DNA from: Giardia intestinalis
Taxonomy: Eukaryota
Direction: 5' to 3' (one strand)
Length of the DNA stretch: 64,000 bases
Assembly: GCA_000002435.2 (NCBI GenBank)
Contig: CM018789.1
Positions 3,810-36,917 of this stretch are shown one piece after another. A program made the position numbers and the translations under genes. The notes beneath the pieces were generated by a model. That model was not told the DNA's origin. It searched no databases and worked only from the letters and a program-made list of their open reading frames with translations. Each line of letters opens with the position of its first letter. Within the stretch, counting starts at the first letter, position 1.

Positions 3810-3895
3810 GGAGAAGGCCCTCCTGGCCGCGCCCCCGCCGCGAGACCACGCGGGCACGGGGGCTCGGGCGCCCCGGGCGGACCCTCACCCCTCTG
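3810..3895 (+). repeat. Direct repeat unit, copy 2
   Basis: Same about 85-bp sequence as 3436-3520, offset by 374 bp. Confidence 0.8.
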
Positions 3896-4283
3896 ATGGG
3901 AGGCTGCACCTCTTGTAGGACCTGGCGCACACGTAGAAGTAAATATCCCTCTGTGTGGGCCTCCCTGGACGTCAACAAGGGGACCAGGGCCCCGGTGGAG
4001 CTGTCGGTGGAAGGCCAGGCACTGCAGGGGAAGGGGTCTACTCCAACCGCCTCCTCAGCCACACACCAGCTTCCGGACAGAGCGGCGACGTACTGTCTGC
4101 AGATGTGCGGCGTGCTGACCGAGGAGGAAGGGGCCCTGAAGGAGAGGGGCGGCTCTATCATGGCGCAGAAAGAGGCACCTGCCCGGGCTGCCACGAGGCA
4201 CGACATGATCGTCGCGTGCCTGTACCTCCGCGTCTCGGGGAAGTTCAACGCAGAGCTGGAAATCAAGACCCACAGCCACCTCA

Positions 4284-20400: not shown

Positions 20401-20722
20401 TTAGGTTACAGCGGGGGCATCTGGGCCGTCGTCTGCTGGCTCCAGGGCAGAAGAGCGGTAGACATGCCGGGCGGTCCCGCTGCTTATTTTTGGATTTTCT
20501 ACTCTTTCACGCTGCATAGAAGGGGTGAGATCTTAGGAAAAACCGGGCTTTGAGGGTCTACTGGCATCGTGAAAGAGCAGTAGGCTGTACAGTGACGCGT
20601 TTACTACCTAAGTGGATGCCACTTACGCCTTCCCCCGACAGATGAACCACCAGCAGAGGAACCCTATGAGGCCCCCGACGACGACGATGGCTGCGACGGA
20701 GATCCCCGCGATGGCGCCAGTG
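17495..20722. repeat. Left arm of a 3.2-kb-arm inverted repeat (partner 25515-28742); symmetry x <-> 46237-x
   Basis: ORF-track entries are mirrored with a constant coordinate sum of 46237 (e.g. 20344-20553+ vs 25684-25893-; 18230-18514+ vs 27723-28007-). The arms are indel-free from about 17640 to 20620, with only a few amino-acid substitutions visible (E/K; PSR/TFR; A/T, P/H, V/M). The arm is about 68% GC with no recognisable gene. The inner end overlaps the last ~35 codons (~100 nt of conserved tail) of the VSP CDS. Confidence 0.9.
20599..20622 (-). promoter_or_regulatory. Conserved VSP 3' end / extended polyadenylation signal, mirror copy for the minus-strand VSP
   Basis: Exact reverse complement of 25615-25638 (the two positions sum to 46237). 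Confidence 0.75.
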
Positions 20723-22266
20723 CTGAGGCCGCTCTTGTTCATACTGTCTCCTCCAGTGTCTCCGCCGGTGCCATCGTCAGTCTTTTGTTGTGTCAAATAA
20801 CAAGTAACAGCCCCGGAAGAACTGGCTGGCTCCTTGCAGCTCAGACAGTTTGGTACGCCTTTAATGCTTCCATCATCCTTGTCGCATGCTACGCACTTTG
20901 TTCCGGACTTATAGTATCCCGGGAAGCACTCCGAACACTGCTGTGAAGGAGCACTTCCTGTACATTTTGAGCAGCCAGCTGGACATGTCGGACAGACCTT
21001 TCCACTGGGCTGTTGTCCGTTCGCGCAAGTAGTGCACTCTCCATTGTTAGCTGCCGTGCAGACAGCCTTTCCAGGAAGCTTCGCCACACCATAGCATCCA
21101 CCAGAAATGAGGGCGTATGCTCCTGTGCACGCCGTGCACTTCCCGCTTGCAGCTGTGCATACACTCGCGTCTCTCCCAATTTTTACTGCTGTGCACACTC
21201 CGTCGATTGGGGCATATCCCTCCTTGCACTGGGCACAGTACTTCGCGCCCCCCACGTCAGCCGTGCACTGCCCGTCTGCACAGTTGGTAATGAACGCACC
21301 AGTGCATTCCTTGACGCACCTCCCAGTCGCTCCGTTGGCCTCATACAGAAGGGAGTGTCCAGGGTAGCAGGCCGTGCAGGAGGTCTCCTTGTCGTCGGTC
21401 TGGCAGCTGGCACACGACGAGTGGCAGGGGGTGCAGACGTTTTGCTTGTCGTATGTCCCGGCGGGGCAGTTGTCCATGCACTCGTCCTTGAGGGGGCTGA
21501 CCTTCTTACTAGCATGACACTTAGAGCAGGTGACCTTGACTCCTGCTTCAGGAGCAGGTGCTCTAGGTATGCATAGTTCGCAGTCTTCTATGCCACCGCT
21601 TCCAGCTTCACTACAGCCAGCACACTTCTTAACACCGTCGACGATTGTCGGGAAGAAGCCCTCGCCGCATCCTGATTCCGCGACGCACTCCATAACGCCT
21701 CTATCTATTTTCAAGTAGAGGTCTGCGGCACATTTGGTGCATATGGCGGCCTTAGTGCCACCAATTGATAGTTGCCCTGGCTGAGTACAGGTGACGCACT
21801 CGGCCACGCCCGTGTACTTCTTATCGCCAGTAAGCGTCACGCCCGTTGTATCCCCGCACGAAACAACCGAGTCGTGTGCGTTATCAGTGCCCGGCGGCAG
21901 GAAGTATCCTTCCTTAGCCTGTGTGCACACTCCAGCATTTGCTGTTTCACACATCGTGTTGCCAGGTGCCTGGCTATCCTTGTAGCATCCGCCCTTGTAC
22001 ATGAAGGACTTATTAGCGCACTGTGTGCACTTCCCATCTTGCTTCCGGGTACACTCGTTATTGTCTGCTGAGCACACTCCGTCCGTTGGGGCAGATTGAG
22101 ACCCACCGCCGTTGCACTGCGAGCAGTATTTCTTGCCGTTGACGACGGCGCTACAGGCCTTGCAAGTGTTGGGCTCACTGCTAGCTACCTCTTCGCATTC
22201 GTCTCCGGCTTGCGCTGCCCGTACTAGCTCGAGTGCGAGACCGGTCAGCAAAAATGCATAGAACAT
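20623..22266 (-). CDS. vsp: Variant-specific surface protein (VSP), 547 aa
   Basis: Signal peptide MFYAFLLTGLALELVRAAQA, numerous CXXC motifs, GGCY motif (MYKGGCYKD), and C-terminal TM plus the invariant tail GLIGFLCWWFICRGKA*. The ORF track extends to a TTG at 22293; the first ATG is at 22264-22266. Confidence 0.9.
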   Translation of the reverse strand: MFYAFLLTGLALELVRAAQAGDECEEVASSEPNTCKACSAVVNGKKYCSQCNGGGSQSAPTDGVCSADNNECTRKQDGKCTQCANKSFMYKGGCYKDSQAPGNTMCETANAGVCTQAKEGYFLPPGTDNAHDSVVSCGDTTGVTLTGDKKYTGVAECVTCTQPGQLSIGGTKAAICTKCAADLYLKIDRGVMECVAESGCGEGFFPTIVDGVKKCAGCSEAGSGGIEDCELCIPRAPAPEAGVKVTCSKCHASKKVSPLKDECMDNCPAGTYDKQNVCTPCHSSCASCQTDDKETSCTACYPGHSLLYEANGATGRCVKECTGAFITNCADGQCTADVGGAKYCAQCKEGYAPIDGVCTAVKIGRDASVCTAASGKCTACTGAYALISGGCYGVAKLPGKAVCTAANNGECTTCANGQQPSGKVCPTCPAGCSKCTGSAPSQQCSECFPGYYKSGTKCVACDKDDGSIKGVPNCLSCKEPASSSGAVTCYLTQQKTDDGTGGDTGGDSMNKSGLSTGAIAGISVAAIVVVGGLIGFLCWWFICRGKA

Positions 22267-23544
22267 TGCGGCCCGCGCAGCCCTGTCACGCAAGGTTATG
22301 GCAGCTCCACTTACCGCGCTTATACCCTTTCATGACGCTTGCCTATGCTGTATGACACACTGACAGAGATTACCCTTCATGTGGGCCTGCGTTGAGAGGT
22401 GGGGCCGTGCTGATTCCACCTTCGTGTGACTGGCCGGCTGTGAAACGGACCGATCGATGTAAGCTTCCTCCCTTGTGTTGCAAGGCATACCATAGTAACG
22501 GCTACACGGCGGTCATGTTTCGCTCTTCGCTGTGATGTGAGGGTTTCCTGGCGACCAGCTCTCCTGCTGTGCCAGTCACAAGGTCTGCCAAGGGACTCCT
22601 AGATTCTCCTGAATGCCTGACCAGCGACCCGATGGAGCCAGCCGTGCAATGTCCAGCAGCCCCGAGCCACGGGTCACCAGTGCATGCCTCGAACACTGTC
22701 CCCCCGAGATTCCACTGTTGAAGCCCGGCAGGAGCGATGCCCCGTGGAGGATGGCTACGTTCTATCGCGACGCACTGTGACTGTCCCCCTGCTCAGGGAC
22801 GCCGTCTGTCATACGACCCAACCCGCTTGCACCACAGACTATTGGTGAACCCGCCCCCTGTCGACTCCCACGCACTGAAGGGCCCTACTGACCACTTTAG
22901 AGACCGTCCTTCGCCGGTCGCAGGCCCCTCTAAAGGAACTGGTGCCTCACCTGTTCCTATCTGGGATGGTTCCGCTACGGTGGACAGCCTTCGGGCACGC
23001 AATGATGTCCCAGCACCCCTAAAATGGTGGTTCCCCACTTGACCGGCTCTAGCCAGCCGCACCACAGCGTCTCCCAGACACGAGGGGTACCTCCGCGCAC
23101 TAGAGAAGAGGCAACACTGGGGAGGCTTGATGCTATTCGGGCTGCCCGCTCCCTGCTGGCGAGGGGTAGTAGGGCCGTAGACAAACCAAACCGTTGCTAT
23201 GCCTCTGGTCGGGTGCCCGGTTCCTCGAGTCGTGGCCGAGGGTGATCATCCAGCCGATACGCAGGGCGGCCACTGATACTGCCATCAATGAAATGCTCTT
23301 GTGCGCGAAACTCTCCTAGCAAGGCTAGTCCTCAACTAGCTGGCCAGAGGGCGGGCTACGTGCTATCTGAGAGGATAGCTAAATCTATGTTTTGTCGTAA
23401 CGGGAAGGTTGGCACCGGATCAGCTCTTTGGGTCTTTGGCATCTTTGACGCGATATCTAACAAGTGCGTTACTGAATGGCTACTTAGAGAATAGAGTCAC
23501 TGGTGAAATGTCTGCTTACGCTAGCAGTGCCTCGATGGGCCTCA

Positions 23545-25614
23545 ATGTTATTAACAGCCTTTTATATTGTGCTGGGCTCCTTTGCAGCACCTTGCCAGCA
23601 AGACGGAGACCACATAGTGACCTGTCAGGTCAATAAGTGCGAGACGGTCGGGTCAGCCGAGATTTGTACCGAGTGCAAGGTCGGAGGCGTCCCGGTCGAC
23701 GGCTTCTGCCGACCCTTCGGCTCCATCCAGGCCGCGGCGGCCGGGTGCACCAAAGCAGACGGGGCTGCTCTCGACAAGATGACAGCAACCTGCGAGAAGT
23801 GCGGCGACGGGTACTTCCTCTTCATGGGCGGGTGCTACAAGACAACCGACGGGCCCGGCAGCGAGATATGCACAAAGGCTGAGGGAGGACTGTGCACTGA
23901 GTGTAAGACAGCTAACGGCCTGTTCAAGAACCCGGCTACACCTCAGAAACCTGGTAGCGAGTGCATCTTGTGCCATGATGCCACAAATAGAAACGGGGTC
24001 ATGGGAGTGGATAACTGTCTCAAGTGCACGGCACCTGGTGGCAATACAGGAGCGGCCACGTGTACTGAGTGCATGGCTGGAACGTATAAGAAGAGTGATA
24101 CAGAGTGTGCTGCATGCCACAGCGACTGTGCCACATGCAGTGGAGCCAATCAAAATCAGTGCACATCGTGCGAGACAGGGAAGTACCTGAAAGGGACTGA
24201 GTGTGTAGACAAAGGTACGTGTAACAACAATCACTACCCCGATGACACTAGCATGACCTGCGTTGCCTGTACTGTCCTCGATGCCAACTGTGCAACATGC
24301 TCATTTGATAGTGCAACGGCAAAGGGCAAGTGTCTGACTTGTAATTCAAATAAGATTCCCAGGACAACCCTCGACGGAACCTCGACCTGTGTGGAAAATT
24401 CTTATGCTGGGTGTCAAGGAGCTGATAACGAGCTGTTCATGAAGGAGGACCAATCGGCGTGCTTATTATGCGGAGATACTAAAGACGTGGATAATAACAA
24501 TAAAGGCAAAGAAGGGTGTAAGACATGCACTAAGAGTGCAGATGGCTCCCCTCCAACTTGCACAGCTTGCCTCGATGGATACTTCTTTGAACAGTCATCA
24601 AACACTTGTGAGGCTTGTGGGGCCAACTGTGTCACATGTTCAGCTAAAACAGATGAGACTAAATGTAAAACGTGCAAGGAGGGGTTCTTCCTGGCCGGCA
24701 CCGGCGAAGGAAAGTGCATCTCGTGCGAGAATGGTAATGATAGTGGCTACAGCGGGCTTGCAGGATGCCTCTCTTGCACAGCCCCAGCCGCCCCGGGCCC
24801 GGCCAGCTGCAACCGCTGCAAGATCGGCTACAAGTTACAGGGAACAACGTGTGTGAAGACCTGCGAGGATACAACGGCTTGTGGGGGTACTTCTGGCGCC
24901 TGTGATGCTATAGTAATAGATGATAAGGGCAACACAAAGCATTATTGTTCCTACTGTGGGGATAGTGGTAAGTTCCCTATTGATGGTATATGCACTGATA
25001 GCAAAGGAACAAATGCTGGGTGTACTGATCACATTTGCAGCTATTGTGCTCAAGGGTACTTCCTATACATGGGTGGCTGCTATAGTACAGCAAGTCCACC
25101 TGGCAACTATATGTGCAAGACAGCTGAAGGTGGCAAGTGCACTGCTGTTAATGATGGTAATAGGTACTTCATAGTCCCAGAAGCAAAGGCTACTGATCAG
25201 TCTGTGTTGGCTTGTAGTAACCCCCTAGGCACACTAGTAGGCACTGATAGTGCTGCTAAGGCATATGTGGGGGTACTCAACTGTTCACAGTGTAAGGCCC
25301 CAGCAGCTCTGACTGAGGCTGGTATGACTGCTGCTGTCTGTACCTCCTGTGACAGTGGTAAGAAGCCCAACAGGGATGGCAGTGGGTGTGTGACATGCTC
25401 TGTGGGTGATTGCAAGAGCTGTGTGATGGATGATGTGTGTGGGGAGTGCAGTGATGGGTACAGTCTGGAGGGTGGTAAGTGTGTGTCCTCTGGCAGTAAT
25501 AGGAGCGGGCTCTCCACGGGGGCCATCGCGGGGATCTCCGTCGCTGTCATCGTCGTCGTGGGGGGCCTCATAGGGTTCCTCTGCTGGTGGTTCATCTGTC
25601 GGGGGAAGGCGTAA
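23545..25614 (+). CDS. vsp: Variant-specific surface protein (VSP), 689 aa
   Basis: Signal peptide MLLTAFYIVLGSFAAP, CXXC repeats, GGCY motifs (FLFMGGCYKT, FLYMGGCYST), and C-terminus ...GLIGFLCWWFICRGKA*. The ORF track starts at a GTG at 23503; the first ATG is 23545. Head-to-head with the other VSP; the starts are 1.28 kb apart. Confidence 0.9.
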   Translation: MLLTAFYIVLGSFAAPCQQDGDHIVTCQVNKCETVGSAEICTECKVGGVPVDGFCRPFGSIQAAAAGCTKADGAALDKMTATCEKCGDGYFLFMGGCYKTTDGPGSEICTKAEGGLCTECKTANGLFKNPATPQKPGSECILCHDATNRNGVMGVDNCLKCTAPGGNTGAATCTECMAGTYKKSDTECAACHSDCATCSGANQNQCTSCETGKYLKGTECVDKGTCNNNHYPDDTSMTCVACTVLDANCATCSFDSATAKGKCLTCNSNKIPRTTLDGTSTCVENSYAGCQGADNELFMKEDQSACLLCGDTKDVDNNNKGKEGCKTCTKSADGSPPTCTACLDGYFFEQSSNTCEACGANCVTCSAKTDETKCKTCKEGFFLAGTGEGKCISCENGNDSGYSGLAGCLSCTAPAAPGPASCNRCKIGYKLQGTTCVKTCEDTTACGGTSGACDAIVIDDKGNTKHYCSYCGDSGKFPIDGICTDSKGTNAGCTDHICSYCAQGYFLYMGGCYSTASPPGNYMCKTAEGGKCTAVNDGNRYFIVPEAKATDQSVLACSNPLGTLVGTDSAAKAYVGVLNCSQCKAPAALTEAGMTAAVCTSCDSGKKPNRDGSGCVTCSVGDCKSCVMDDVCGECSDGYSLEGGKCVSSGSNRSGLSTGAIAGISVAVIVVVGGLIGFLCWWFICRGKA

Positions 25615-28600
25615 GTGGCATCCACTTAGGTAGTAAACGCGTCACTGTACAGCCTACTGCTCTTTCACGATGCCAGTAGACCCTCAAAGCCCGGTTTTTC
25701 CTAAGATCTCACCCCTTCTATGCAGCGTGAAAGAGTAGAAAATCCAAAAATAAGCAGCGGGACCGCCCGGCATGTCTACCGCTCTTCTGCCCTGGAGCCA
25801 GCAGACGACGGCCCAGATGCCCCCGCTGTAACCTAAACCCATATCAGCCTTCCCGGCGGCGCCCCGGCCTGGCTGGCGCTCTAGTCTCCTCAACCAGCTC
25901 TGCGCGATCCGGCCCCCCGCCGAATCCTGTGGGCCACCGTACTTCTCCGTGCCTCAATAGCGTCCTCGTCGCCCGAGACCGGCCGGGACGCCCTGGCCGC
26001 TGCAGGAGAGGCGCGTCGAGCGATGATCCTCGACCGAGGCCGCCCCCAGCTCCATGGCCATCTGAACGTGCCCGCAGTGGCCGTGCCGCGGCAGTGGATT
26101 AGCCCGAGGGCGACCCGTGCCGCCCGATCTACGACCCCTGTTTTTGGATTTCTGCGAAGCAAGGCCTAGTTCTGTCATAGGGCGGCTATAGTAATGGTTA
26201 GCATAGCCCGATGGATACAGAGCCGGAGAAGACGCGGACCGGATCTTGTGCTAACTGATGGCGTGCCGTCTACTGTCTACAGCGCAGAGGTGATGCGTAG
26301 ACGCACCCGCCTGCCCCCACTATAGGTGGTCCTTGCAGTACCAGACCCGGTAGAGTGGGCTGCCGTCAGGAGCCAGCACAGCGGAGGGCGCCATGTGCCG
26401 ATAGGAGCGTGCCCGGGTCGCCCCTGGTTACACCGTAGGCGACGCAAGGACGGACAGGCGCGGGTCCCACTGTAGCGACACGTGCAAGACACAGCCGCGC
26501 GTCATCAGGGCCTCAGAGAGCACTGGCTATGATACGGAAGGGCTACAGCCAGCCCGTTCCAAAGAAGGGGAGCCACACAGGCCCGAGGATCACGTCTCCG
26601 GAGAAGGGAGTTCTGTCCCGGTGGCCGAGACAATGAGGGGGCGATAGCTGGAGCCCGCCCGCTAACCTCGAGCCCTAGATAGCTGCTCGCGGCAAGCATG
26701 CAAGGCGCTCACTCTGGGACACAAGCGGACATCCGGCCCCGGGCTGAGTGTGTCCCTTTGGGGAGTCGGTGTAGCAATGGCCCGACGCTCGGCGTGTGGC
26801 GGTCTCGCCTCACAACTCCCGTCGCCACGTCATTGGGCCACCTAATACCAGCCTGGACGCAGCTTGCGGGGCTCTGAGCGGCCCATCGATCCTCGTCCAG
26901 CGGAGGGCTGGGCATGTCTTCGGAGCCCTTGACCACGGCGCCCGGTGACGTGGGCAAGAGCATCCCGACCTTCCGCTCCCGCCTGCAAACCTTCGCATCC
27001 ACTGCCAGACGACCACATGGGGCTGCAGGATTACTGCCGCTAGGATCTGCCCCAGCGGTGCACCACATCACGAGGCTGGTAACTATACGTGGTACACCCG
27101 CAGAGCGAAGTGGGCCGCACACCGGCGATGCAGGCCAAGGCTACCGATACAGGGCCAGTGCGGAACCAGCTGCGACTGCGTAGGCGGCCGCAGTCAGCAA
27201 CCATATCTGATGATGTGGGGGCCGGTAGTCCTGGGCTGCAACCTTAAGGGCCTGCTAGAAACGAAGTGTGCATGGCAGCATAGGATGTCACAGGAGGACA
27301 AATTTAGAGAGTTCCGTGCTGGCGTCTGAAGGCAAGGATCCGGGCTGCGGGACACAGCAAGGCACGTCTACTAGGCCCGAGGGACGGCCGCACGGAGGAG
27401 GATAGGTCCACCCATCCAAGAGCCGCTCCGGCCCGGCAGCTGAGGGGCGTCCACTGGTACTACCTGCACGCGGGAGCACTCCTGCCACCCCGTAGAACGG
27501 AGAGCAGCACCCCCCAGCAGTAAACACATCAAGCGCCGTAATTAGAGTAGCCGTAGCTGCTACACCATCCGGCCGACCGAGTGCAGTGAACAGTGTACAG
27601 CCGGTGCTGCTCCGGGGGCGCTAACTTGGGACCCCAAAAACTAAAACGCGAACCAAGGGGTTCGCCTGGCTACTAACGCTGCAGCCTCCGTGGCCAGCGC
27701 CCCGGCATCGGCGCCCGCGGCTTCATCTCGGCCCGCTGCGGCACTCGCTGGACATGTAGATGTAAGGATGGCCCGGGGCGCCCCGCCGGCTGCCGCACGC
27801 AAATCGGTAATCCGGGGATCCTCCTGCACCGAGGGGCCAGTAAGGGGCTCCGCAAGGCGCTCCTTCTCCAGCGCCGTCGGGGGCTCGCTGGGGTCGGCAC
27901 AGGGACGGGGTCAGAAGCAGACTTGCCTCAGGGGCGCGGCTAGAGCACCCGCTGCTGGACGAGGCCTGCTCGGGGCGTGCCGCGGCGTCTGATTGGATCA
28001 GCGCCACAACCCGAGAAGAGTCGACTGCACCTGCTGCATTTCGATTTGGCTTTTTGGGGCGCGCGGGGTGCTATTCTACGAGGGCGGGGAGCTCCTGCGA
28101 GTGCACGTGAGAGTACGCCAACTGCCCGTCCGACGAGGTCCTGCGGAAGAGCTGCAGCCCGCCCCTGTAGCGTTGCAACTGTGGAAATGCTGCCAGTAGA
28201 TAGGGCGTCCTCCGGCGGAGATACAGGAGAGCCCCGCCACCCGGCCAGCGAGAGCCTGCCTGCAAAGACGGCACGCTCACCGGCCCATGCGCCTCCTTCA
28301 ACGTGGGCCCGTCGAACCGGTCTCGATGACCTGCACGGTGATCCTGAGGAGCTCCCAAGCTGGGCGTGCTCTCCGCAGCAGGCGACTGCCCGCAGGAGCC
28401 GCGGAAGGCCTCTGCAGCCCTGCCTATGTACGATCCCGGGCGGCCCAATGCCGGCAAGAGGCGTGCGTGACGCTGACAAGGCCTCGGCCGCCCATCAGCC
28501 TGGGACCGTGGTGAGGAACATGCTAGAGGTAATGCCCGCACGCACGGCCTCCCAGCCCGGAGAACGCCGCATTCCGATTCGCGCGAGCGCCGACGTTTCA

Positions 28601-28742
28601 AACTTTTTATTCCACCTTGCCATGTGCATTCGCCGGCCGTCGGTCCGTGTGCCGGGTCGTCGAACAGGACACGCGTCTTCCTGTTAGCGCCGCGACTGAG
28701 GCGACCGGGGGAGCCGGTGCGAGGGCTGGGCCTGTTTGGGCG
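25515..28742. repeat. Right arm of the inverted repeat (partner 17495-20722)
   Basis: Reverse complement of the left arm; near-identical apart from SNPs and a single indel near the outer boundary (about 28640). Confidence 0.9.
25615..25638 (+). promoter_or_regulatory. Conserved VSP 3' end / extended polyadenylation signal (GTGGCATCCACTTAGGTAGTAAAC)
   Basis: AGTAAAC (Giardia AGTRAAY poly(A) signal) lies 18 nt after the stop codon, within the characteristic CTTAGGTAGTAAAC VSP 3' motif. Confidence 0.75.
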
Positions 28743-30013: not shown

Positions 30014-31228
30014 TTAAGAACCATCAGGGACCTCTACGATGAAGTCCTTGAGTCGCTTATCACCGTTGGTCGCAGAGCAGGTCCGCTTGAGCTCAGATTC
30101 TATCACCTCAACCATACTATTCCAAGCCGCAGAGTCTTGGGTATTGTAGTATTGACAGAGATCGGTCTTATCTATGCTAGCTAGTGATAGGCTAGTGGAT
30201 CGTGGCTCAGATGCAAGGCCCGAGCGTTCCCACAGTCGAAATAGACTGCCCGAAGCTTCAGAAGAGACCTGAATCTGCGCGTCTGTCATTGGAATTAGAG
30301 CCGATTGGTGCGATTCTGTACGCATGTTATCAGCCGTTGTTTCTAGAATAGAATAGTTAGCAATAGTAGAATAGCCAGAGTAATGCGGGACAGTCGGCTT
30401 GTGGCCGAGAGTATCTGGTACGCGCAGGTTGGCTTGAAGAGACATCATGTTAAGTACTTCTGTACTCCGCGAGGCACTCTTGGCGGAAGCATACCCAGAA
30501 GTAATGTACGGAAAGAACTTAACAGGAAGTAGTAGTATCAGGATGAAGACAAACACATTGTAAGTAGAGTGGGAATCCGATGCAGTGGGAGAGCTCCCGA
30601 AGCCTGTATAGGTATCTGTACCTGTTAGTGACCCAGAGTCATATGCCCCCTGCGGATAAACTGAGTCACTTGGTGGCGGCAGTGGTAGTACGTCGCCATT
30701 CAATGGCAGTTGGAGGGGTCCACTGAGGCAATTATCATAAGCATAGTTATCTCCATAGTAGCTCTCGCCTGGACGCACGGGGCATTCATGGCCCTGCGTG
30801 GTAGCTATAAGTGTGTCCTGGTTCAGAGTATTATAGCCCACATTTCGTGAATGAGAGATTGTCCTAATGAACATCAAGATTCCGTCTATGCTACGAAGTA
30901 TCTTTTCTGTGTGAACGTTGAGAATCTTCTGGAGGGCGGCGTTTTCTTCCCTCAGTCGCAGGTTATCTTCCCGCAGCTTTTGCAGATCCTCCTTGAGGAG
31001 TATCTGATCCTCCTTGACCCGCTCCCGGTACCGCTTGGCGGCCAGGCGGCCATTCTCCTTCCGCTTGTCAGTGTCCAGATCCGGTTTACACTTGTACGGC
31101 TCCGGTCCCCACGTCCCCGAGCCAGGATCAGAGGCCAGGTGCCCATAGTAAGGTTGTTGTGGGGACCCGACCCTGCCCAGCTCGGAGGAAACCCCCAAAG
31201 AGGGATCAAATGTAAAGGGTAGTGTCAT
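30014..31228 (-). CDS. bZIP-like (basic region + 4-heptad leucine zipper) protein with a downstream hydrophobic segment; candidate membrane-tethered transcription factor
   Basis: 404 aa. Basic region KRKENGRLAAKRYRERVK is followed by a zipper ILLKEDL-QKLREDN-LRLREEN-AALQKIL with Leu every seventh residue. A hydrophobic stretch NVFVFILILLLPVKFFPYI lies about 150 aa downstream. ATG at 31226-31228 is preceded by AAAAATAAATG. Confidence 0.5.
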   Translation of the reverse strand: MTLPFTFDPSLGVSSELGRVGSPQQPYYGHLASDPGSGTWGPEPYKCKPDLDTDKRKENGRLAAKRYRERVKEDQILLKEDLQKLREDNLRLREENAALQKILNVHTEKILRSIDGILMFIRTISHSRNVGYNTLNQDTLIATTQGHECPVRPGESYYGDNYAYDNCLSGPLQLPLNGDVLPLPPPSDSVYPQGAYDSGSLTGTDTYTGFGSSPTASDSHSTYNVFVFILILLLPVKFFPYITSGYASAKSASRSTEVLNMMSLQANLRVPDTLGHKPTVPHYSGYSTIANYSILETTADNMRTESHQSALIPMTDAQIQVSSEASGSLFRLWERSGLASEPRSTSLSLASIDKTDLCQYYNTQDSAAWNSMVEVIESELKRTCSATNGDKRLKDFIVEVPDGS

Positions 31229-31302
31229 TTATTTTTGCTCCTGTTTCTGCTGTGACCTAATCTGACGTCAAATGTATCAGGGAGTACGGGCGCCTTTAAT
31301 TC

Positions 31303-31653
31303 CTATGTGACCTTTGCGGCCTCTGGCTGCTTGAGCGTGTCTATGACCTCTTGTCGCGCTTCCACTATGTGCTTCTGCAAAGACTTTAGCAGCTCCAGCT
31401 TACCGCCGGCGGCTTTTATTGTCTCTTTGTCAATTTTGAGGTATCCCAGATCGTGCGCCTCCACCGCGCCCTTGGGATAGCGCTTGTCCCGATCGGCCAG
31501 GACCTGGGCCGACGGATAGACCTTTCGTACCGCTGCCTCTATTTCCGCCAACGACGGCCGTGGCACGCTGTGCTCCAATCCCAGGCGCCGTCCGTCTTTC
31601 AAGGACGCTTCTGAATCCATGTAGCGCGGGTATATGATGCATGCCTTGCCCAT
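31303..31653 (-). CDS. SRP19: Signal recognition particle 19 kDa protein (SRP19)
   Basis: MGKACIIYPRYMDSEASLKDGRRLGLEHSVPRPSLAEIEAAVRKV aligns with human SRP19 FICIYPAYLNNKKTIAEGRRIPISKAVENPTATEIQDVCSAVG. The ORF track begins at a TTG at 31677; the first ATG is at 31651-31653, preceded by ACAAAAAAATG. Confidence 0.75.
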   Translation of the reverse strand: MGKACIIYPRYMDSEASLKDGRRLGLEHSVPRPSLAEIEAAVRKVYPSAQVLADRDKRYPKGAVEAHDLGYLKIDKETIKAAGGKLELLKSLQKHIVEARQEVIDTLKQPEAAKVT

Positions 31654-31688
31654 TTTTTTGTATGCCACAATAATCAAAACATAGGTCG
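31654..31688. promoter_or_regulatory. 35-bp divergent intergenic region shared by SRP19 (minus) and the RluA-family gene (plus)
   Basis: ttgtatgccacaataatcaaaacataggtcg. AT-rich tracts abut both ATGs, so it must hold both initiators. Confidence 0.5.
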
Positions 31689-32441
31689 ATGGTCTCCGTT
31701 GTTTTTGAAAACGACGACTACACAGTTATCAACAAGCCCCCAAATCTTCATATAGATGGGGACTACCCCCAGACTGTCCGCTCGTGGTATCTGGCGACCA
31801 GAGGGAGAGCGCCTCGCTTTGTCAACCAACTCGACTATCCTACCTCGGGGCTTATGGTTATAGCGTCGAGTAGAAAGGCTGCTGGATTTGCCGGCCGCGA
31901 GTTTCAAGCACGAGCCGTCGCAAAGACGTACGTCGCCTTAGTAGTTGGTGATGTCGCCAGCCAAACAATCTCGGCCCCAATAGCAGATGATGCGGCTGAT
32001 CCTCGGCAGTTTTGCATGTGCATTAGTGAAACGGGAAAACATTCAGAGACACACGTGGAGCGGATTGCGGCTATCCCCGAAGACTTGCGTGAGCTCAGCC
32101 CTTCACTGCCACAAGGCCTTTATACGCTCGTTGTTCTTCGCCCTGTCACAGGCAGGAGACACCAGCTTCGGCTTCATTTGGCGCATATTGGTCACCCCAT
32201 CGTCGGGGATCAGCTCTATGGAGGCGGACTGACGGATACCAATCAATGTGGTGAAGAAGAACGCCTCTGCCTTCATGCCCTTATGCTCTCCATTCCAAAT
32301 CTATCGGGACTACCTCTTTTAGAGGCACCTCTGGAGTTTCCAAGTGATTTACTTGCGATAGTGTTCAATAAATATAAGCATACAATTGAGAGCATGCCTG
32401 TACGTGTCAGTACCCCTTGTACTGACCTTCCCTCAAGCTAG
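31689..32441 (+). CDS. RluA-family pseudouridine synthase
   Basis: LDYPTSGLMVIA (the catalytic-Asp motif LDxxTSGLL) and TGRRHQLRLHLAHIGHPIVGDQLYG (TGRTHQIRVHLAxxGxPIxGD). Confidence 0.75.
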   Translation: MVSVVFENDDYTVINKPPNLHIDGDYPQTVRSWYLATRGRAPRFVNQLDYPTSGLMVIASSRKAAGFAGREFQARAVAKTYVALVVGDVASQTISAPIADDAADPRQFCMCISETGKHSETHVERIAAIPEDLRELSPSLPQGLYTLVVLRPVTGRRHQLRLHLAHIGHPIVGDQLYGGGLTDTNQCGEEERLCLHALMLSIPNLSGLPLLEAPLEFPSDLLAIVFNKYKHTIESMPVRVSTPCTDLPSS

Positions 32442-32465: not shown

Positions 32466-35387
32466 TTAGTGAGGGCCTTGCTTATTCATATTTTTAGTCA
32501 AAGCGTTATACAGCTGTGTTTGTAGCTCCTCGTTGACAGGCAGAGATGTCTCCACCTGGGCTCCTAACGTGCGCTGAATCACAGAGGACAAAAGATCCGA
32601 CCTTTCCCGGCTCAAGGAAAGCTCCTGACTTCTCACCAAAGCGTCGCCCTCGGCAGTATTGTCGTGAATTGCCAAGAGTTGACCGGGCATAGCATATGCG
32701 TGCGCTTTCTTTGGCTCCTGCAGCATGGATGAATCCACTATCGGCGCCTGTGGGCTATGAGCCGCGGTGTGTAGGTATATCTTGGTGATGTTTCTATTGG
32801 ATGCCTCTGTCATCCTTCTCGACGGAGAGCTGGGCAATGCAGTCGGCCCAGAATCGTTTAAGTCAGCAGCGAGCAAAGGGAGCTTATCAAATGCGTCTAT
32901 AGAGAGATCCTTTGATAAGCGGCCCGTTCCAGCCGGTGATAAAGGGAAGACGTCCTTTGGATCGACTATCGAGGCGGGCAGCTTTCTGGTCTTCCGTTTC
33001 TTGTTTGTCACCAGCTCTTGCAAATCGGCGGCAAGGTCATTGAGAATTCGGCCATGCGGTTCGCTCTTCTCTCCGCCGCTGGTTCGAATGTGAGGAGTTG
33101 TCTCCAAGTTGTGTGGAAAGAGGATTGGAGACAGAGTTGTGGGAAGCTCCACCTGTTGTTGAGGACGGGAACTGCTATCGTCAATCATCGGTTGCTGGTA
33201 TGGTTGGACGTGGGAAGTGTACTCCCTTATCTCAGGGCTTTTCTCGGAGATGGTTATAGACGGCGTTTGCTGCGTAGATTCTCTTGTTGGCGAGATAGGT
33301 AGAGTGCTTTTAGAGACGGGCTGGCTCTCTTCTGTATCTGATACGTGCCTCTGCTGTGCCACGGGCCCCAGCGTGGTAACTGTCGACCCGAAGCTTTTAT
33401 GAATATCAACCTCGGGTGCAGAGGTCCCTAATGCCGTAGCAGATTGTCTACTGGTAGCACTTACACGAATATCTAGTGTATCGTTATTGGGCTTACCTCC
33501 GTCCTGCTCTACTCTGTTCTTAAGCTGATATTGCCTTGAGCCGGCCCTCTTTGCATTGTCCTTTTTGGCGGAAGTTGGGCGCTTTTCTTTAGTGATGCTT
33601 GAAGATGGTAGCTTGACGGATTTTTCTACACCTACTGCAGGCTTTGGCCTGGCACTTTGCGGTCGCCTTCCACGTGTAGCATTAGATGATTCTCTGTTGC
33701 TCCTGTTATCAGCATTTTCTCTTTGCGTGGATATATGTGAGTGTGCCTCCTCTGCGCCCTGGCATGCCTCTTTGTTGCTGATAGACGTATGCGCTTTGTT
33801 GCCTGATCGAGACCTTGAATCAGTAGTTGCTGATGGTCTATGATCGGGCTTCCATGGCCTCTGAGGGGCCTCCGGTATTGTGTGTGTTGCAGCCTCTGAG
33901 AAAGCAGCACCGCTCCCAGAAGCATGGCCGATAACCGTTGGGGCTTTATCATCGCTGGGAATACGATAACGTTCCAATTGTTCAGAGAGGGTTTCTGGTT
34001 TAGTGAGAGAATTAGACTGTCTTCTTTGCTGAGGAAAGCGTGCGCACGGTCTTTGCACTGTGTTTAGTACACCTTCTTGGCAAGCGGCCTCATCTAGCTC
34101 CTGTTTATAACTTGCCATGCTGTTATATTGCCTATTCCATTGTATTGTTTGGATACTGTATCTCTTAATGAAGGACCCATCCTCCCTGCTCCTCCCTGCA
34201 CCATCTGAAGGGTCTGCTTCTTCGCTATAGTCATACAACTGCTGCGTATCGTTCTTACCATATTTCTTCAAGAGATCTACGGATGCTGCCTGTGTCTCCG
34301 GGGCAGTCCCACAATTATCTGCAAGACCTTTATCTCTGGGTTGATTGGCATCCGAGACCAATGCTTTCACTGGTTCGTTGATGATTATATTCTTCTTTGT
34401 ATACGTTTCTGCATCGCCCTCGTTGCTCTCTAGTTTCATGTTATGTCGCCACGGCTTTGCATAGTCCCTTTGATCTTCCCAAATGTCATGCCTGTTTCTA
34501 AATACCTTGTGGTCTCTGCAATTGTCTTCAACGTAAGCCATTGCAAGGTCTGTTGCCAGCATATCCATAACGACATGGTTGTTAGTCTGCTTGAGCGTCC
34601 TTTCATGTGTGTCGTTTTCATGATCCAAAAGGAGGTTTTGCTTATACTCAAGAGAATTGTAATTGGATCGTGTGGAAGACGGGCGTTTAACATTGGCTCC
34701 GTGAGCACTTGTGACGTTCTGCATGATTGCTTTTTTATACGCCAAGTAACTATTGGTACTAGGAAGAGACACGGATGTGGCCATGCTTCCCGAAATGTGT
34801 GGTTTAGGCGACCCTTGTCGCGACGGTTGCTTGGACGCAGGAGGTGTCAGGCCTTCCTGCCGCTGGGGGGACTGAGGGACAGACGCTTGGCTCGCCATTT
34901 CGCCCTTTGACTCACGTGGTGATGAGGTTGGTGACACACTTCTTTCCTGCTTCTGGGACGCGTCGGGCTCTTTAGATTTAGAGGAAGATCGACTAGCGGT
35001 TTTCTGTTGACTCTTCCCAAGTGACCTCCGAGGACTTTTAGAGGTTGGTGTGCTGGCTTTAGAGTTGCTCTTCACATTAGATGACTTGCTGTTAATGGTT
35101 GAGCACGACGCAGTCCTATGGCTTTGGTGCATACTTCCGACTCTACTCGTTGACCGTGAGTCTAGATATGAAAGGCGATATTGCATTAAGCGCTTGTCAA
35201 ACGTTTCAGACTTATCAAAGCTCAGTCTATCAAGATATCGTTCCGGAAAGCTGAGTCGGAACTGATCCTTCAGCTTGTCCTCCGGGAGCCTTACACGCCG
35301 TATGTCTCCGTTATCCGTATACTCCTTGGCCAACTGCAGCGACCCTGCCATGCTCCTACTGGACTTTGTCCGCGCATCCTTGGGCAT
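32466..35387 (-). CDS. Hypothetical protein, 973 aa, Ser/Thr/basic-rich, predicted intrinsically disordered
   Basis: Single uninterrupted ORF with ATG at 35385-35387. Low-complexity composition (S, T, K, R, P, Q) and no recognisable domain. Tightly flanked by identified genes. Confidence 0.55.
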   Translation of the reverse strand: MPKDARTKSSRSMAGSLQLAKEYTDNGDIRRVRLPEDKLKDQFRLSFPERYLDRLSFDKSETFDKRLMQYRLSYLDSRSTSRVGSMHQSHRTASCSTINSKSSNVKSNSKASTPTSKSPRRSLGKSQQKTASRSSSKSKEPDASQKQERSVSPTSSPRESKGEMASQASVPQSPQRQEGLTPPASKQPSRQGSPKPHISGSMATSVSLPSTNSYLAYKKAIMQNVTSAHGANVKRPSSTRSNYNSLEYKQNLLLDHENDTHERTLKQTNNHVVMDMLATDLAMAYVEDNCRDHKVFRNRHDIWEDQRDYAKPWRHNMKLESNEGDAETYTKKNIIINEPVKALVSDANQPRDKGLADNCGTAPETQAASVDLLKKYGKNDTQQLYDYSEEADPSDGAGRSREDGSFIKRYSIQTIQWNRQYNSMASYKQELDEAACQEGVLNTVQRPCARFPQQRRQSNSLTKPETLSEQLERYRIPSDDKAPTVIGHASGSGAAFSEAATHTIPEAPQRPWKPDHRPSATTDSRSRSGNKAHTSISNKEACQGAEEAHSHISTQRENADNRSNRESSNATRGRRPQSARPKPAVGVEKSVKLPSSSITKEKRPTSAKKDNAKRAGSRQYQLKNRVEQDGGKPNNDTLDIRVSATSRQSATALGTSAPEVDIHKSFGSTVTTLGPVAQQRHVSDTEESQPVSKSTLPISPTRESTQQTPSITISEKSPEIREYTSHVQPYQQPMIDDSSSRPQQQVELPTTLSPILFPHNLETTPHIRTSGGEKSEPHGRILNDLAADLQELVTNKKRKTRKLPASIVDPKDVFPLSPAGTGRLSKDLSIDAFDKLPLLAADLNDSGPTALPSSPSRRMTEASNRNITKIYLHTAAHSPQAPIVDSSMLQEPKKAHAYAMPGQLLAIHDNTAEGDALVRSQELSLSRERSDLLSSVIQRTLGAQVETSLPVNEELQTQLYNALTKNMNKQGPH

Positions 35388-35603: not shown

Positions 35604-36917
35604 ATGCCTCTGTCTGTTTTCCATTTTTTACTCTGCGCTCGTCCGATGAGGTGCTGCAAAAAGGTGGACACCCAGGAAGACAACCATATTGCTCCGCTTG
35701 CTCCCAAGATGGCAGAACGTCTTGCAAATAGCATCTATCCTCCCTGTCTCAGGGCTCCCTGCACTTCCCCCGGCGATTCAGATGCGCCCAAGTCGACCTC
35801 TATCAAGCCAGCATTGGAGGACATGGTCATTGACGGAGTTCGTGGTAATTTGGTATGGAGAGGGCCTGGCTCCCTCTCTGGCACAGAACTTCGTATATCC
35901 AATTGCCACGACTCCACAATAGTCCTCCTTGATAACGTCAGCACAGTCACCGTCGACGACTGTGTGGGTTGTGACATTGTCCTTGTTGCAAGCAGCCAGA
36001 GCACATTCCTCCGCTCCTCCACAAGGTGCCGCTTCGCTGTCTCCTCTGGCCAACTACGCACCCGAGACCTAACTGCTTGCTCCATTTTCCTCCACTGCAA
36101 CACAGATCCCATTATTGAGTCCTCCGAGGATCTCACCTTCATGCCGTTTTGCATTGGCATAAATCTGCCCGATGCCTTCTCCGACAACTCCAAGGTAGAG
36201 CAAGTAGTTTACTACATTAACTACGCAATCCAGAGCGCCCAGGCGCGTGCTTCACTGATAGGACTGAAGAATCGTTTTGAGAGAGTGTACAACTTCACCC
36301 CTGAGAAGAACACCTATAAGGTGGTTCTTCAGCCATCTGCAAATTGCACAGATATCGAGAAGCCACCAACTGTTCGATTCCCGTCTAATACATCGGATCT
36401 GTGGAATGATGCCAACGTACTGACTACTTATAATGCCCCAAAGACTGGAGATCTGGGGAAGGCTATAGTGACCACGTCCGGCGGAATGGTCCATGGAATG
36501 ATGAGGCCTACGTCGCTAGCTCAAACAAATCTTTTCGGCGATGAGCACTGCTACTTCTGGGTAGACGGTATTGATACCACGCTTCCCTCACGTGAGTATA
36601 GTATACGATACAGCCAGGCATCGTTGTGGTGGTCTTCACAGCTGTATGGCCTGCTGGCAATGCACAAGTTGTATATTCGCCAGGTTGCAGCTGTACTCCC
36701 AAGTCCAACCGTGGAGCGTGGCGGCATCCCGGTTAGTCACGGATTCATCGTTGACGTTTCGGCTCCTAATAACACACTTCAAGCACTGGTAGAGGCGACC
36801 CAGAAGTTCAAACAGTGCAGTCTAGAGCTTCCACCAGTGAAGATCCTGAGTGGTGCGGATATATTCAGAGCACATGAATTGATTGCGTTCTGGAATAGTG
36901 AAATGAGCCTTGCCTAG
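35604..36917 (+). CDS. TBCC (tubulin cofactor C / CARP beta-helix) domain protein with about 230-aa C-terminal extension; TBCC/RP2-like
   Basis: ELRISNCHDSTIVLLDNVSTVTVDDCVGCDIVLVASSQSTFLRSSTRCRFAVSSGQLRTRDLTACSIFLHCNTDPIIESSEDLTFMPF matches the TBCC C-terminal domain pattern (...QQLRTRNCTDCEILLFSVTQPPVIESCTGIRFGPY). The extra C-terminal domain is reminiscent of the RP2 architecture. An alternative start is at 35707 (MAERLAN...). Confidence 0.5.
   Translation: MPLSVFHFLLCARPMRCCKKVDTQEDNHIAPLAPKMAERLANSIYPPCLRAPCTSPGDSDAPKSTSIKPALEDMVIDGVRGNLVWRGPGSLSGTELRISNCHDSTIVLLDNVSTVTVDDCVGCDIVLVASSQSTFLRSSTRCRFAVSSGQLRTRDLTACSIFLHCNTDPIIESSEDLTFMPFCIGINLPDAFSDNSKVEQVVYYINYAIQSAQARASLIGLKNRFERVYNFTPEKNTYKVVLQPSANCTDIEKPPTVRFPSNTSDLWNDANVLTTYNAPKTGDLGKAIVTTSGGMVHGMMRPTSLAQTNLFGDEHCYFWVDGIDTTLPSREYSIRYSQASLWWSSQLYGLLAMHKLYIRQVAAVLPSPTVERGGIPVSHGFIVDVSAPNNTLQALVEATQKFKQCSLELPPVKILSGADIFRAHELIAFWNSEMSLA

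Follow-up and report, generated by a model that had tools for sequence, protein, structure and literature searches.

Few transcription factors can be recognised in Giardia, and one gene in the stretch of G. intestinalis DNA analysed here (64 kb, contig CM018789.1; hereafter the window) raised the question of whether it encodes a genuine bZIP factor and whether this factor is tethered to a membrane. The open reading frame list and its translation gave a product of 404 amino acids followed by a TAA stop. This product was identical to the G. intestinalis WB protein XP_001704415.1 / A8BWY2, annotated as "bZIP family protein", and the corresponding gene ID was GL50803_94525 (PMC10187934, Table S4). 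One bZIP is known in the Giardia genome with no second one reported, and this "solitary" protein has been under discussion since 2004-2006 (PMC2492810, PMC4736632). Moreover, it was published in 2016 that Gly stands in place of the Asn of the basic region, which is almost unique among eukaryotic bZIPs (PMC4736632). Thus, neither the bZIP identity of GL50803_94525 nor its Gly at the Asn position is new. Two other features appear to be unreported, namely a strongly conserved segment resembling a membrane anchor and a perfect bZIP site in the gene's own promoter that was kept throughout the genus. The searchable literature yielded no published localisation, processing or DNA binding of GL50803_94525, and nothing relevant on Giardia together with either TGACGTCA or a membrane-bound transcription factor. 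Its transcript has been described as abundant and dynamically regulated, rising 2.5-fold in fit relative to non-fit trophozoites 1 h into contact with host cells (PMC10187934). The mRNA was approximately constant during encystation and therefore had no evident link to the encystation programme.

The position of the gene at the subtelomere boundary, as proposed in an earlier note made from the sequence alone, agreed with its surroundings: telomere repeats occupied positions 1-811 of the window, VSP genes were located at 20.6-25.6 kb, and the conserved synteny of bZIP / SRP19 / pseudouridine synthase began at the bZIP gene. Since this synteny was shared, the orthology of the Giardia bZIP genes was secure. 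Rfam gave zero matches in the whole window, so neither rDNA nor a known RNA lies close to the gene. Single-sequence and profile searches found no relatives outside the genus Giardia, including no orthologue in Spironucleus or other metamonads; the full-length profile, compared with 1.84 billion representatives, matched only Giardia proteins and one PAR bZIP. The features discussed below are collected in the table.

Table. Features of the GL50803_94525 locus (positions in the window).
Feature	Position	Strand	Basis
Complete CDS GL50803_94525, the single bZIP protein of Giardia	30014..31228	-	ORF; exact match to XP_001704415.1 / A8BWY2; gene ID from PMC10187934
N-terminal motif M..F.F(DPSL), residues 1-11	31196..31228	-	Alignment
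Basic region KRKENGRLAAKRYRERVK, residues 55-72	31013..31066	-	Pfam bZIP_2; alignments; ungapped match to ATF4 AATRYRQ; Gly in PMC4736632
Leucine zipper, residues 75-103	30920..31006	-	Heptad table; AF2 helix 53-128
Poorly conserved linker, predicted disordered, residues 129-216	30581..30844	-	pN; AF2; alignment gaps
Conserved hydrophobic block SDSHSTYN-VFVFILILLLPVKFFPYI-TSGY, residues 217-246	30491..30580	-	Hydropathy; gap-free alignment; dN/dS; AF2
C-terminal domain, residues 247-404	30017..30490	-	Alignments; hhalign; pN
Perfect CRE palindrome TGACGTCA, candidate autoregulatory site, first base 42 bp upstream of ATG	31263..31270		Motif scan; promoter alignment
AT-rich stretch AAAAATAAA directly before ATG, read as Giardia-type initiator	31229..31237	-	Sequence

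The protein almost certainly carries a genuine bZIP domain. Residues 48-101 aligned to positions 1-53 of the 54 in the Pfam profile bZIP_2 (PF07716) and scored 41.7 bits (gathering threshold 22.3; E = 1.2e-10, more than expected by chance), and the G. muris-clade orthologue also scored above this cut-off (28.5 bits). The bZIP_1 profile (PF00170) gave 22.0 bits, under its cut-off of 27.6. In addition, AF2, with an input alignment of 7 sequences, predicted one continuous basic-zipper helix from residue 53 to residue 128, with a block-mean pLDDT of 83-86 between residues 61 and 90; this helix was the only confident part of a full-length model whose mean pLDDT was 38.7. The bZIP call made earlier was therefore borne out, and the outcome that the earlier note had named as refuting it, a lack of any significant bZIP profile match together with a generic coiled coil, did not occur. 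The four leucine heptads claimed straight after the basic region were likewise found in the canonical register, with L78, L85, L92 and L99 at the d positions and L82, N89, N96 and L103 at the a positions. L78, for which the G. muris clade has Asn or Ser, was located 10 residues past the invariant Arg68, the same spacing as from R243 to L253 in GCN4; L85, L92 and L99 were invariant. Three attractive g-e' pairs were present (D74-K79, D81-R86 and D88-R93), and the zipper sequence appeared compatible with homodimers.

The basic region had a low pN, and the orthologue alignment showed R61, L62, A63, Y67, R68 and E69 to be invariant across the genus. Of the signature N-x2-A-A-x2-[C/S]-R, however, the protein retained A63, A64 (replaced by Ser in the G. 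muris clade) and R68 alone. Aligned without gaps, it has Gly60 (Glu in the G. muris clade) where the canonical Asn is expected and Tyr67 at the Cys/Ser position; ATF4 (AATRYRQ) provides a precedent for the Tyr. The earlier note had described an extra residue between N and AA together with Tyr at the Cys/Ser position. This description was correct for the present sequence, but Asn59 could not be accepted as a shifted canonical Asn, being Ser in two orthologues of the G. duodenalis group and found at another offset in the G. muris clade. These departures from the signature make a canonical specificity less certain but do not weaken the assignment to the bZIP fold. Recognition of the CRE is not guaranteed, because the canonical base-contacting Asn is replaced by Gly or Glu. 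By sequence, the bZIPs closest to the Giardia domain are PAR/NFIL3/ATF4-like. The PDB matches were NFIL3 and ATF4; matches to solved bZIPs were weak (E 0.005-0.16), and Geminin-type coiled coils scored similarly.

The promoter offered a candidate binding site. The palindrome TGACGTCA was found once in the window and once in each of five orthologous loci, and in 6/6 lineages it preceded the bZIP ATG by 42-52 bp. Thus, all six copies in the 110.7 kb of Giardia DNA examined belonged to bZIP promoters, and the chance of such a placement was about 1e-3 per independent clade. AP-1, C/EBP, PAR, G-box, A-box, UPRE and MARE sites were absent from all six bZIP promoters. In the promoter alignment, which had a mean column identity of 65%, the palindrome formed an invariant island. 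In the G. muris clade it fell inside the codons of SRP19, and there the codon beside the motif had changed from Gly to Thr with the motif base retained. Moreover, the spacing to the bZIP ATG was maintained, whereas that to the SRP19 stop ranged from -36 to +57. One-mismatch variants of the CRE were not enriched in the window (17 found versus 20.8 expected), and the window therefore suggested no additional targets. Downstream of the palindrome, AAAATAAATG was invariant in four G. duodenalis lineages; in line with Giardia promoters in general, we read the AT-rich stretch before the ATG as a putative initiator. Since the literature reports no other Giardia bZIP, the protein would have to act as a homodimer, and this homodimer may recognise the CRE palindrome. 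That every Giardia lineage examined has the palindrome about 40 bp upstream of the bZIP start codon suggests that the gene is autoregulated. Judging from these sequence data, we consider it probable that the bZIP protein binds the CRE and regulates its own gene.

The remaining parts of the protein were conserved to different degrees. Phe5 and Phe7 of the N-terminal motif were invariant across the genus, and this motif is possibly an activation motif. The linker that follows the bZIP helix had a pN of 0.26-0.36, was predicted by AF2 as coil with a pLDDT below 35, and in the G. muris clade was shorter by approximately 60 residues. The C-terminal domain had no Pfam match, and the hhalign alignment to the G. 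muris-clade orthologue spanned it. Within this domain, residues 351-386 had a pN of only 0.05-0.09 and included the conserved motif KTDLCQYYN...VEVIESELKRTCS (residues 354-386, window 30071-30169), in which Cys358 and Cys384 were invariant across the genus.

Between these two regions was the most constrained part of the protein, the hydrophobic block, with a dN/dS of 0.02-0.06 (non-A/E pairs, pS 0.57-0.70) versus 0.14-0.17 for the whole protein. The 19-residue hydrophobic stretch noticed earlier about 150 amino acids downstream corresponded to VFVFILILLLPVKFFPYIT at residues 225-243, 153 residues past the end of the basic region, with a Kyte-Doolittle mean of 2.28. The predicted TM core (residues 225-242, window 30503-30556) was located between the invariant Tyr223 and Tyr241, with exactly 17 residues between them and zero indels genus-wide. 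The block was kept in 8/8 orthologues from the whole genus, even in the G. muris clade, where identity was down to 24-25%. Pro235 and Phe239-Pro240-Tyr241 were invariant in the gap-free alignment; the residues of the block were nearly identical throughout G. duodenalis and were swapped for other hydrophobic ones between the clades. The motif K-F-F-P-Y was also considered as a PY-NLS. This reading was rejected, the G. muris clade having no basic residue there (P-S-[ST]-L-F-P-Y) and the motif being placed within a ten-residue apolar run.

The hydropathy of the block was compared with that of known anchors on three published scales. In all orthologues, the block had a Kyte-Doolittle mean of 2.1-2.6 and a Wimley-White octanol free energy of -14 to -17 kcal/mol, whereas on the octanol scale the best 19-mers from 14 neighbouring genes reached -0.4 to -9.7 and two VSP anchors from the same window -10.9 and -11.8. 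The Hessa translocon scale gave a borderline result, with a naive sum over 19 residues of +0.8 to +2.2 kcal/mol for the block versus -1.9 and -2.3 for the VSP anchors; the sum for the block was positive because of two Pro and one Lys inside it. Thus, the block was at least as hydrophobic as genuine Giardia VSP anchors on two of the three scales. The idea of a membrane tether was strengthened by this hydropathy, by the genus-wide conservation and by the low dN/dS, and the block is likely to be a membrane anchor. The indications of its orientation were mixed. In 7/7 orthologues scored, the 15 residues on the N-side contained no Lys or Arg (net charge -1), whereas the C-side had two (net charge 0 to +1), and the N-in topology was disfavoured because the positive flanking charges were on the C-side. 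Against this pattern, the long N-terminal domain without a signal peptide argues for N-in.

The same observations can be read in favour of a soluble nuclear bZIP with ordinary regulation, in which the block would stay out of membranes and form a buried protein-protein interface, make up the core of a small C-terminal fold, or act as a degron or a regulatory element prone to aggregation. The flanking charges, contrary to the positive-inside rule for N-in, and the positive Hessa sum would fit such a protein, and the near-absolute identity of the block within G. duodenalis is tighter than most plain anchors require. AF2 provided no confident model either way: it predicted a helix over residues 221-246, with very low confidence both for this hydrophobic helix and for the entire C-terminal half. 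However, a soluble protein would hardly account for ten consecutive Ile/Leu/Val/Phe residues amid disordered, low-complexity flanks, or for an octanol free energy more favourable than that of genuine VSP anchors. Moreover, hydrophobic-for-hydrophobic swaps between clades at a fixed length with flanking Tyr are the typical pattern of a TM helix. We therefore regard the soluble protein as an unlikely reading.

According to the membrane-anchored reading, which we prefer, the hydropathy and conservation of the block suggest that the protein would be made as a single-pass precursor in the ER or nuclear-envelope membrane. Its first 220 residues, with the possible activation motif, the bZIP and the flexible linker, would be on the cytosolic or nucleoplasmic side, and the 160-residue C-terminal domain with its two invariant cysteines on the opposite side. 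More speculatively, the C-terminal domain or the unusually constrained Pro-containing membrane segment might sense a signal that triggers proteolytic release of the bZIP half, which could then enter the nuclei and boost its own promoter among other targets. The predicted TM segment contained two helix-destabilising residues, Pro235 and Pro240, both invariant genus-wide, and by analogy they may have a role in intramembrane cleavage. Sites of the S1P type (RxxL / Rx[LVI][LKFT]) were absent within about 90 residues past the block, and none was conserved in position across the genus. Conceivable release routes would be proteasomal processing or the A22 presenilin/signal-peptide-peptidase enzymes, which have been reported in Giardia (PMC1913524). 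Unconventional splicing of the XBP1/HAC1/bZIP60 type as a way to remove the anchor was rejected because Giardia lacks IRE1, as it also lacks the PEK kinase (PMC3218828). Regulated release of the bZIP half is a tentative proposal, to which we give somewhat less than an even chance. The entire chain, from a homodimeric, CRE-binding and autoregulated bZIP to a membrane-anchored precursor and its release, is possible but likewise falls a little short of an even call.

A protein that is anchored permanently would require no proteolytic activation. It could reside in the inner membrane of the nuclear envelope, itself continuous with the ER, and bind DNA while tethered through the linker of 60-120 residues. 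To our knowledge, there is no precedent among bZIPs for such a permanently membrane-anchored DNA-binding form. It would also leave unexplained the constraint on the helix-breaking Pro235 and the FPY motif, as well as that on the 160-residue C-terminal domain with its invariant Cys. On the other side, the linker between zipper and anchor is long and flexible, no S1P-type site was recognisable, and ATF6-type processing takes place in the stacked Golgi. Giardia trophozoites do not have a stacked Golgi (PMC13483034). On balance, permanent anchoring seems quite improbable. Finally, a degenerate bZIP without specific DNA binding, serving as a coiled-coil scaffold while the palindrome served another factor or the 3' end of SRP19, would accord with the Gly or Glu at the Asn position, the weak matches to solved bZIPs and the similar scores of Geminin-type coiled coils, but it is very hard to reconcile with the genus-invariant basic-region residues and their low pN, the Pfam score, a CRE footprint that follows the bZIP ATG rather than the SRP19 stop, and the lack of reports of any other bZIP that could use the CRE (PMC2492810, PMC4736632).

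With the membrane-anchored protein as the preferred reading, a single bZIP that has its own site in its promoter would be a concrete candidate for a membrane-to-nucleus switch in a parasite without the usual ER-stress sensors, and TGACGTCA gives a defined, directly testable cis-element. Giardia reportedly mounts an ER-directed transcriptional stress response, and IRE1, PERK and ATF6 are absent. It would be going much further to propose that the sole Giardia bZIP is an ER- or nuclear-envelope-tethered, self-amplifying CRE-binder that acts as the missing transducer of this response or as a membrane-lipid sensor, and we consider this doubtful. If true, membrane-tethered bZIP signalling would either date back to the ancestor of eukaryotes or have arisen anew in a lineage whose set of transcription factors is minimal. 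If the anchor does not span the membrane, the gene is the already annotated bZIP with an interesting candidate autoregulatory site. GL50803_94525 also bears on the evolution of bZIPs.

Among known bZIPs, GCN4 shares with the Giardia protein the gap-free spacing between the invariant Arg and the first zipper Leu, the Ala-Ala and Arg residues, and Asn at an a position. It differs by Asn235, replaced by Gly (Glu in the G. muris clade), and by Ser242, replaced by Tyr. The latter residue is found in ATF4 (PDB 1ci6), which has the same core AA-x-RYR without gaps, in a weak alignment (E 0.8). ATF4 binds CRE-type sites; it has the canonical Asn, which the Giardia protein lacks, and it is soluble and mostly a heterodimer.

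The plant factors bZIP17, bZIP28 and bZIP60 are membrane-tethered bZIPs and transducers of ER stress. Among them, bZIP60 activates its own promoter, a parallel to the CRE upstream of the Giardia gene. However, bZIP60 is released by splicing mediated by IRE1, which Giardia lacks (PMC3218828), and the sequence relationship of all three plant proteins to the Giardia protein ends at the bZIP.

The order of an N-terminal activation region, a bZIP, one hydrophobic segment and a C-terminal domain with conserved cysteines is the same in ATF6 and in the CREB3 family (Luman, OASIS), and these proteins also have helix-destabilising residues within the hydrophobic segment. The CREB3 family targets a CRE-type site, similar to the candidate site of the Giardia bZIP. 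On this architecture the earlier note had filed the protein as ATF6/CREB3/OASIS-type, and the sequence comparison did not support such family membership. Outside the bZIP the sequences shared no similarity, our searches gave no homologues beyond Giardia, and the closest bZIPs belonged elsewhere. The linker from zipper to anchor was 60-120 residues versus approximately 10-25. Furthermore, the type II topology of these factors is normally marked by positive charges on the N-side, whereas the putative Giardia anchor has no basic cluster there and flanking charges that speak against N-in. An RxxL site was neither present within about 90 residues past the block nor conserved in position across the genus, and Giardia has no stacked Golgi.

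A functional analogy is offered by yeast Spt23 and Mga2, and by SREBP, which are dimeric and TM-anchored, sense the lipid state of the membrane with the TM helix itself and are freed by proteolysis. They have no homology to the Giardia protein, having an IPT/NF-kB-like or bHLH-Zip fold and an anchor at the extreme C-terminus or in a two-helix hairpin. Nevertheless, they provide a model for the Giardia bZIP, in which the putative TM segment is the most constrained part.

The product of GL50803_94525 was a bZIP protein, as the earlier note had proposed. It matched Pfam bZIP_2 nearly end to end over residues 48-101 (score 41.7 bits, gathering threshold 22.3, E 1.2e-10), and bZIP_1 scored under its cut-off. 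In the AF2 model, residues 53-128 formed one unbroken helix (block-mean pLDDT 83-86 over residues 61-90), and confidence was low throughout the rest of the model. All the sequence features listed in the note were found in the ORF and its translation, which was identical to XP_001704415.1 / KAE8301209.1 / UniProt A8BWY2 of G. intestinalis WB, named "bZIP family protein" in the source databases. The gene is GL50803_94525 in GiardiaDB, on chr1 (gene table, PMC10187934). The gene and its bZIP identity were already known.

The invariant Arg68 corresponded to R243 of GCN4, and the first zipper leucine was located at +10, the same as in GCN4. The zipper had L78, L85, L92, and L99 at the d positions and L82, N89, N96, and L103 at the a positions. 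There were three attractive g-e' pairs (D74-K79, D81-R86, and D88-R93) and no repulsive pairs in any orthologue. Since this is the only bZIP reported for the Giardia genome (PMC2492810, PMC4736632), a homodimer would be the sole option, and the zipper was consistent with it. The basic region was non-canonical. In the ungapped register, the position of the base-contacting Asn was occupied by Gly60, as already published (Jindrich & Degnan 2016, PMC4736632), and by Glu in the G. muris clade. The Asn that the earlier note had placed one position early was present (Asn59), but it was replaced by Ser in two orthologues and was therefore incidental. The Cys/Ser position was Tyr67; ATF4 likewise has Tyr there (AATRYRQ versus AAKRYRE in Giardia, ungapped alignment). 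Solved bZIPs matched weakly (NFIL3 E 0.005 with the family profile, ATF4 E 0.8).

Full-length relatives were Giardia proteins only, and profile searches outside the genus found nothing but generic bZIPs. The G. duodenalis group comprised five clusters that were 58-98% identical, assemblages E and B among them. The G. muris clade comprised the "bZIP transcription factor domain protein" of G. muris and a second, 79%-identical protein. Both shared just 24-25% identity with the window protein, yet hhalign aligned them with it from the basic region to the C-terminus (probability 97.7%, E 2.5e-12). Moreover, the order PseudoU synthase / SRP19 / bZIP was the same in the window and in 5/5 fetched orthologous loci, so the G. 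muris-clade proteins were positional orthologues.

Features of the bZIP locus and its surroundings (window positions unless a locus is named)
Feature	Position	Strand	Remarks
Telomere array	1-811		(CCCTA)n, ~160 copies of the 5-bp unit, complement of TAGGG
Transporter-like ORF	14723-15862	+	379 aa
VSP gene	20623-22293	-	Pfam VSP, E 8e-84
VSP gene	23503-25614	+	Pfam VSP, E 2e-53
bZIP CDS	30014-31228	-	single ORF, 404 codons + TAA stop
Antisense ORF	30851-31222	+	123 aa
CRE, perfect palindrome TGACGTCA	31263-31270		first base 42 bp upstream of bZIP ATG
SRP19	31303-31677	-	
PseudoU_synth_2 protein	31689-32441	+	
Ser/Thr/Gln/Pro-rich ORF	32466-35387	-	973 aa
TBCC-domain protein	35604-36917	+	
SRP19, G. 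muris-clade locus L005	3539-3991		150 aa
SRP19, G. muris-clade locus L001	7533-7985		150 aa

The telomere array placed the chromosome end at the window start. With the VSP genes between this array and the close-packed, conserved genes that began with the bZIP gene, its position next to the subtelomere boundary was confirmed. The bZIP locus of G. muris was chromosome-internal, which made the subtelomeric position specific to the G. duodenalis lineage. The contigs at L002 (assemblage B) and L003 (the locus of the orthologue P0005) ended ~500-650 bp past the bZIP stop, and these breaks fitted the transition from core to repetitive subtelomere that WB has here; the bZIP gene of G. muris was instead followed by a gene of 3018 aa. 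GC content was 0.65-0.67 in 1-4000, 18000-20000, and 26000-28700, versus 0.44-0.50 in the core at 34 kb and beyond, where genes were dense. These GC-rich blocks were filled with long ORFs overlapping on both strands and are possibly degenerate subtelomeric repeats or retroelement remnants. Rfam had no match in the window, and Pfam had none for ORF 9417-10928, the one tested from these blocks. The subtelomeric 379-aa ORF weakly matched nucleotide-sugar / SLC35F-type transporters (SLC35F scored 23.9 bits with a cut-off of 21, and EamA stayed under its cut-off). The Ser/Thr/Gln/Pro-rich ORF had no Pfam match, and G. duodenalis loci kept a 961-980 aa counterpart beside the pseudouridine synthase gene. 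The 123-aa antisense ORF opposite the bZIP coding sequence gave no sign of being a gene and was most likely a shadow of the coding strand.

The hydrophobic block was under stronger constraint than any other part of the protein. As same-genome positive controls for TM segments, we used the anchors of the two divergently oriented VSP genes, both of the canonical ...GFLCWWFICRGKA type.

Hydropathy of the block and of comparison segments (scale values after the published tables)
Segment	Kyte-Doolittle 19-mer mean	Wimley-White octanol, kcal/mol	Naive Hessa sum, kcal/mol
Residues 225-243, window protein	2.28	-14.0	+2.16
Same block, seven orthologues scored	2.1 to 2.6	-14 to -17	+0.8 to +2.2
Two window VSP C-terminal anchors	2.5 and 2.7	-10.9 and -11.8	-1.9 and -2.3
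Best 19-mer per gene, 14 neighbouring genes	0.75 to 2.16	-0.4 to -9.7	

Substitution by region (Nei-Gojobori counts, G. duodenalis group; pS/pN ranges exclude the close A/E pair; no dN/dS for saturated pairs)
Region	pS	pN	dN/dS
Hydrophobic block, residues 215-246	0.57-0.70	0.04-0.07	0.02-0.06
bZIP, residues 53-112	0.79 or more (saturated)	0.08-0.13	not computable
Linker, residues 131-214	0.62-0.83	0.26-0.36	0.20-0.29
Whole gene	0.64-0.80	0.18-0.23	0.14-0.17

The Hessa sums of the block were positive because of two Pro and one Lys inside the segment, and conservation was a stronger argument for an anchor than hydropathy. Namely, the genus alignment was free of indels from S217 to G245, and S217, H220, Y223, P235, F239, P240, Y241, G245, and R254 were invariant, with exactly 17 residues between Y223 and Y241. 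Between N224 and P235, the alignment had ten residues, always Ile, Leu, Val, or Phe but different in the two clades (VFVFILILLL versus ILLLFLLFVI). Constant length, interchangeable hydrophobics, and aromatics at each end look like a membrane-spanning helix, and the block may insert into a membrane. By these substitution values, the block was invariant because of selection on the protein and not because of a low mutation rate or a DNA element.

The protein sequence had neither an N-terminal signal peptide nor a second hydrophobic segment. In every orthologue, there were 0 Lys/Arg in the 15 residues before the block and two in the 15 after it, so the positive-inside rule would assign the C-terminal side to the cytosol, which spoke against a plain ATF6-like topology. 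Despite this conflict, we considered the N-in orientation more plausible, since translocation was unlikely for an N-terminal domain of 220 residues that contains a highly basic coiled coil. The C-terminal domain had a conserved motif (residues 354-386) with genus-invariant C358 and C384, which is compatible with an oxidising luminal location, although it is no proof of it. No RxxL-type site after the block was conserved among the orthologues. Yeast Spt23 and Mga2 are released by proteasomal processing. If the Giardia bZIP were released from the membrane, it would need a route other than those of animal and plant membrane-bound bZIPs, perhaps through such processing or through A22 presenilin/SPP-type peptidases, which were reported for Giardia (PMC1913524).

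The second feature was the CRE within the 74-bp SRP19-bZIP spacer of the window. It was the only copy in 64 kb, against a chance expectation of 0.79, and one-mismatch variants were not enriched in the window. Each of the 5/5 orthologous loci had exactly one copy, with its first base 42-52 bp before the bZIP ATG, so that this promoter position accounted for 6/6 copies across the 110.7 kb of Giardia sequence covered; the chance of a copy in the 100 bp upstream was ~1e-3 per independent clade. The called start of P0005 was probably two codons short (L003 3995-4003): an in-frame ATG at 3995 gave MTMSFSF..., like other orthologues, and again a distance of 42 bp. Seven further classic bZIP sites (AP-1, C/EBP, PAR, G-box, A-box, UPRE, and MARE) were absent from 6/6 promoters. 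The CRE was invariant among G. duodenalis lineages, although mean column identity across the spacer was 65%. The spacer of the G. muris clade was just 9-15 bp, and the CRE therefore fell inside the last SRP19 codons (ggT GAC GTC Aaa versus acT GAC GTC Aga), where the first codon shown had gone from Gly to Thr and yet retained the T of the motif. Since the distance to the bZIP ATG was kept and the position relative to the SRP19 stop varied from -36 to +57, the CRE belonged to the bZIP gene. The G. muris-clade SRP19 ended in an odd ...DV[KR]SHRHRHRH tail that overlapped the bZIP promoter and contained the CRE; G. duodenalis SRP19 was shorter (101-124 aa as called) and stopped before it. The most economical reading is that the bZIP protein would bind the CRE in its own promoter and regulate itself, because the literature gives no other bZIP in the genome. 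Such binding suggests that an ACGT-core palindrome may be recognised despite the missing canonical Asn.

The bZIP transcript was abundant (logCPM 8.1; Table S4, PMC10187934). Between fit and non-fit trophozoites, its logFC was -0.41 in the inoculum, +1.30 (FDR 6e-17) after 1 h of epithelial-cell contact, and +0.99 after 3 h, a change on which the authors did not comment (PMC10187934). During encystation, it was roughly constant (normalised values 73-110, PMC4807828).

Two features, the anchor-like conserved block and the conserved CRE that the gene carries in its promoter, seem new as far as the searchable literature shows, in which no paper linked Giardia to the CRE motif. On the basis of both, a testable hypothesis of a membrane compartment coupled to transcription in Giardia can be built around this long-annotated "odd bZIP". 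This hypothesis touches the ER-stress response, which, as Spycher is said to have described in 2013, works without conserved sensors. To our knowledge, Giardia has no stacked Golgi. It also lacks IRE1 and PEK (PMC3218828). The earlier note had compared the protein with ATF6/CREB3/OASIS-type factors, and the layout was indeed similar to that of ATF6 and CREB3/OASIS in animals and bZIP17/28/60 in plants. However, it is not a member of these families: its similarity to animal and plant membrane-bound bZIPs was restricted to the bZIP, which was closer to the PAR/NFIL3/ATF4 types, and unlike ATF6/CREB3-type proteins it had neither a juxtamembrane basic cluster nor an S1P motif. The extreme constraint on its putative membrane segment recalls anchors that double as sensors.
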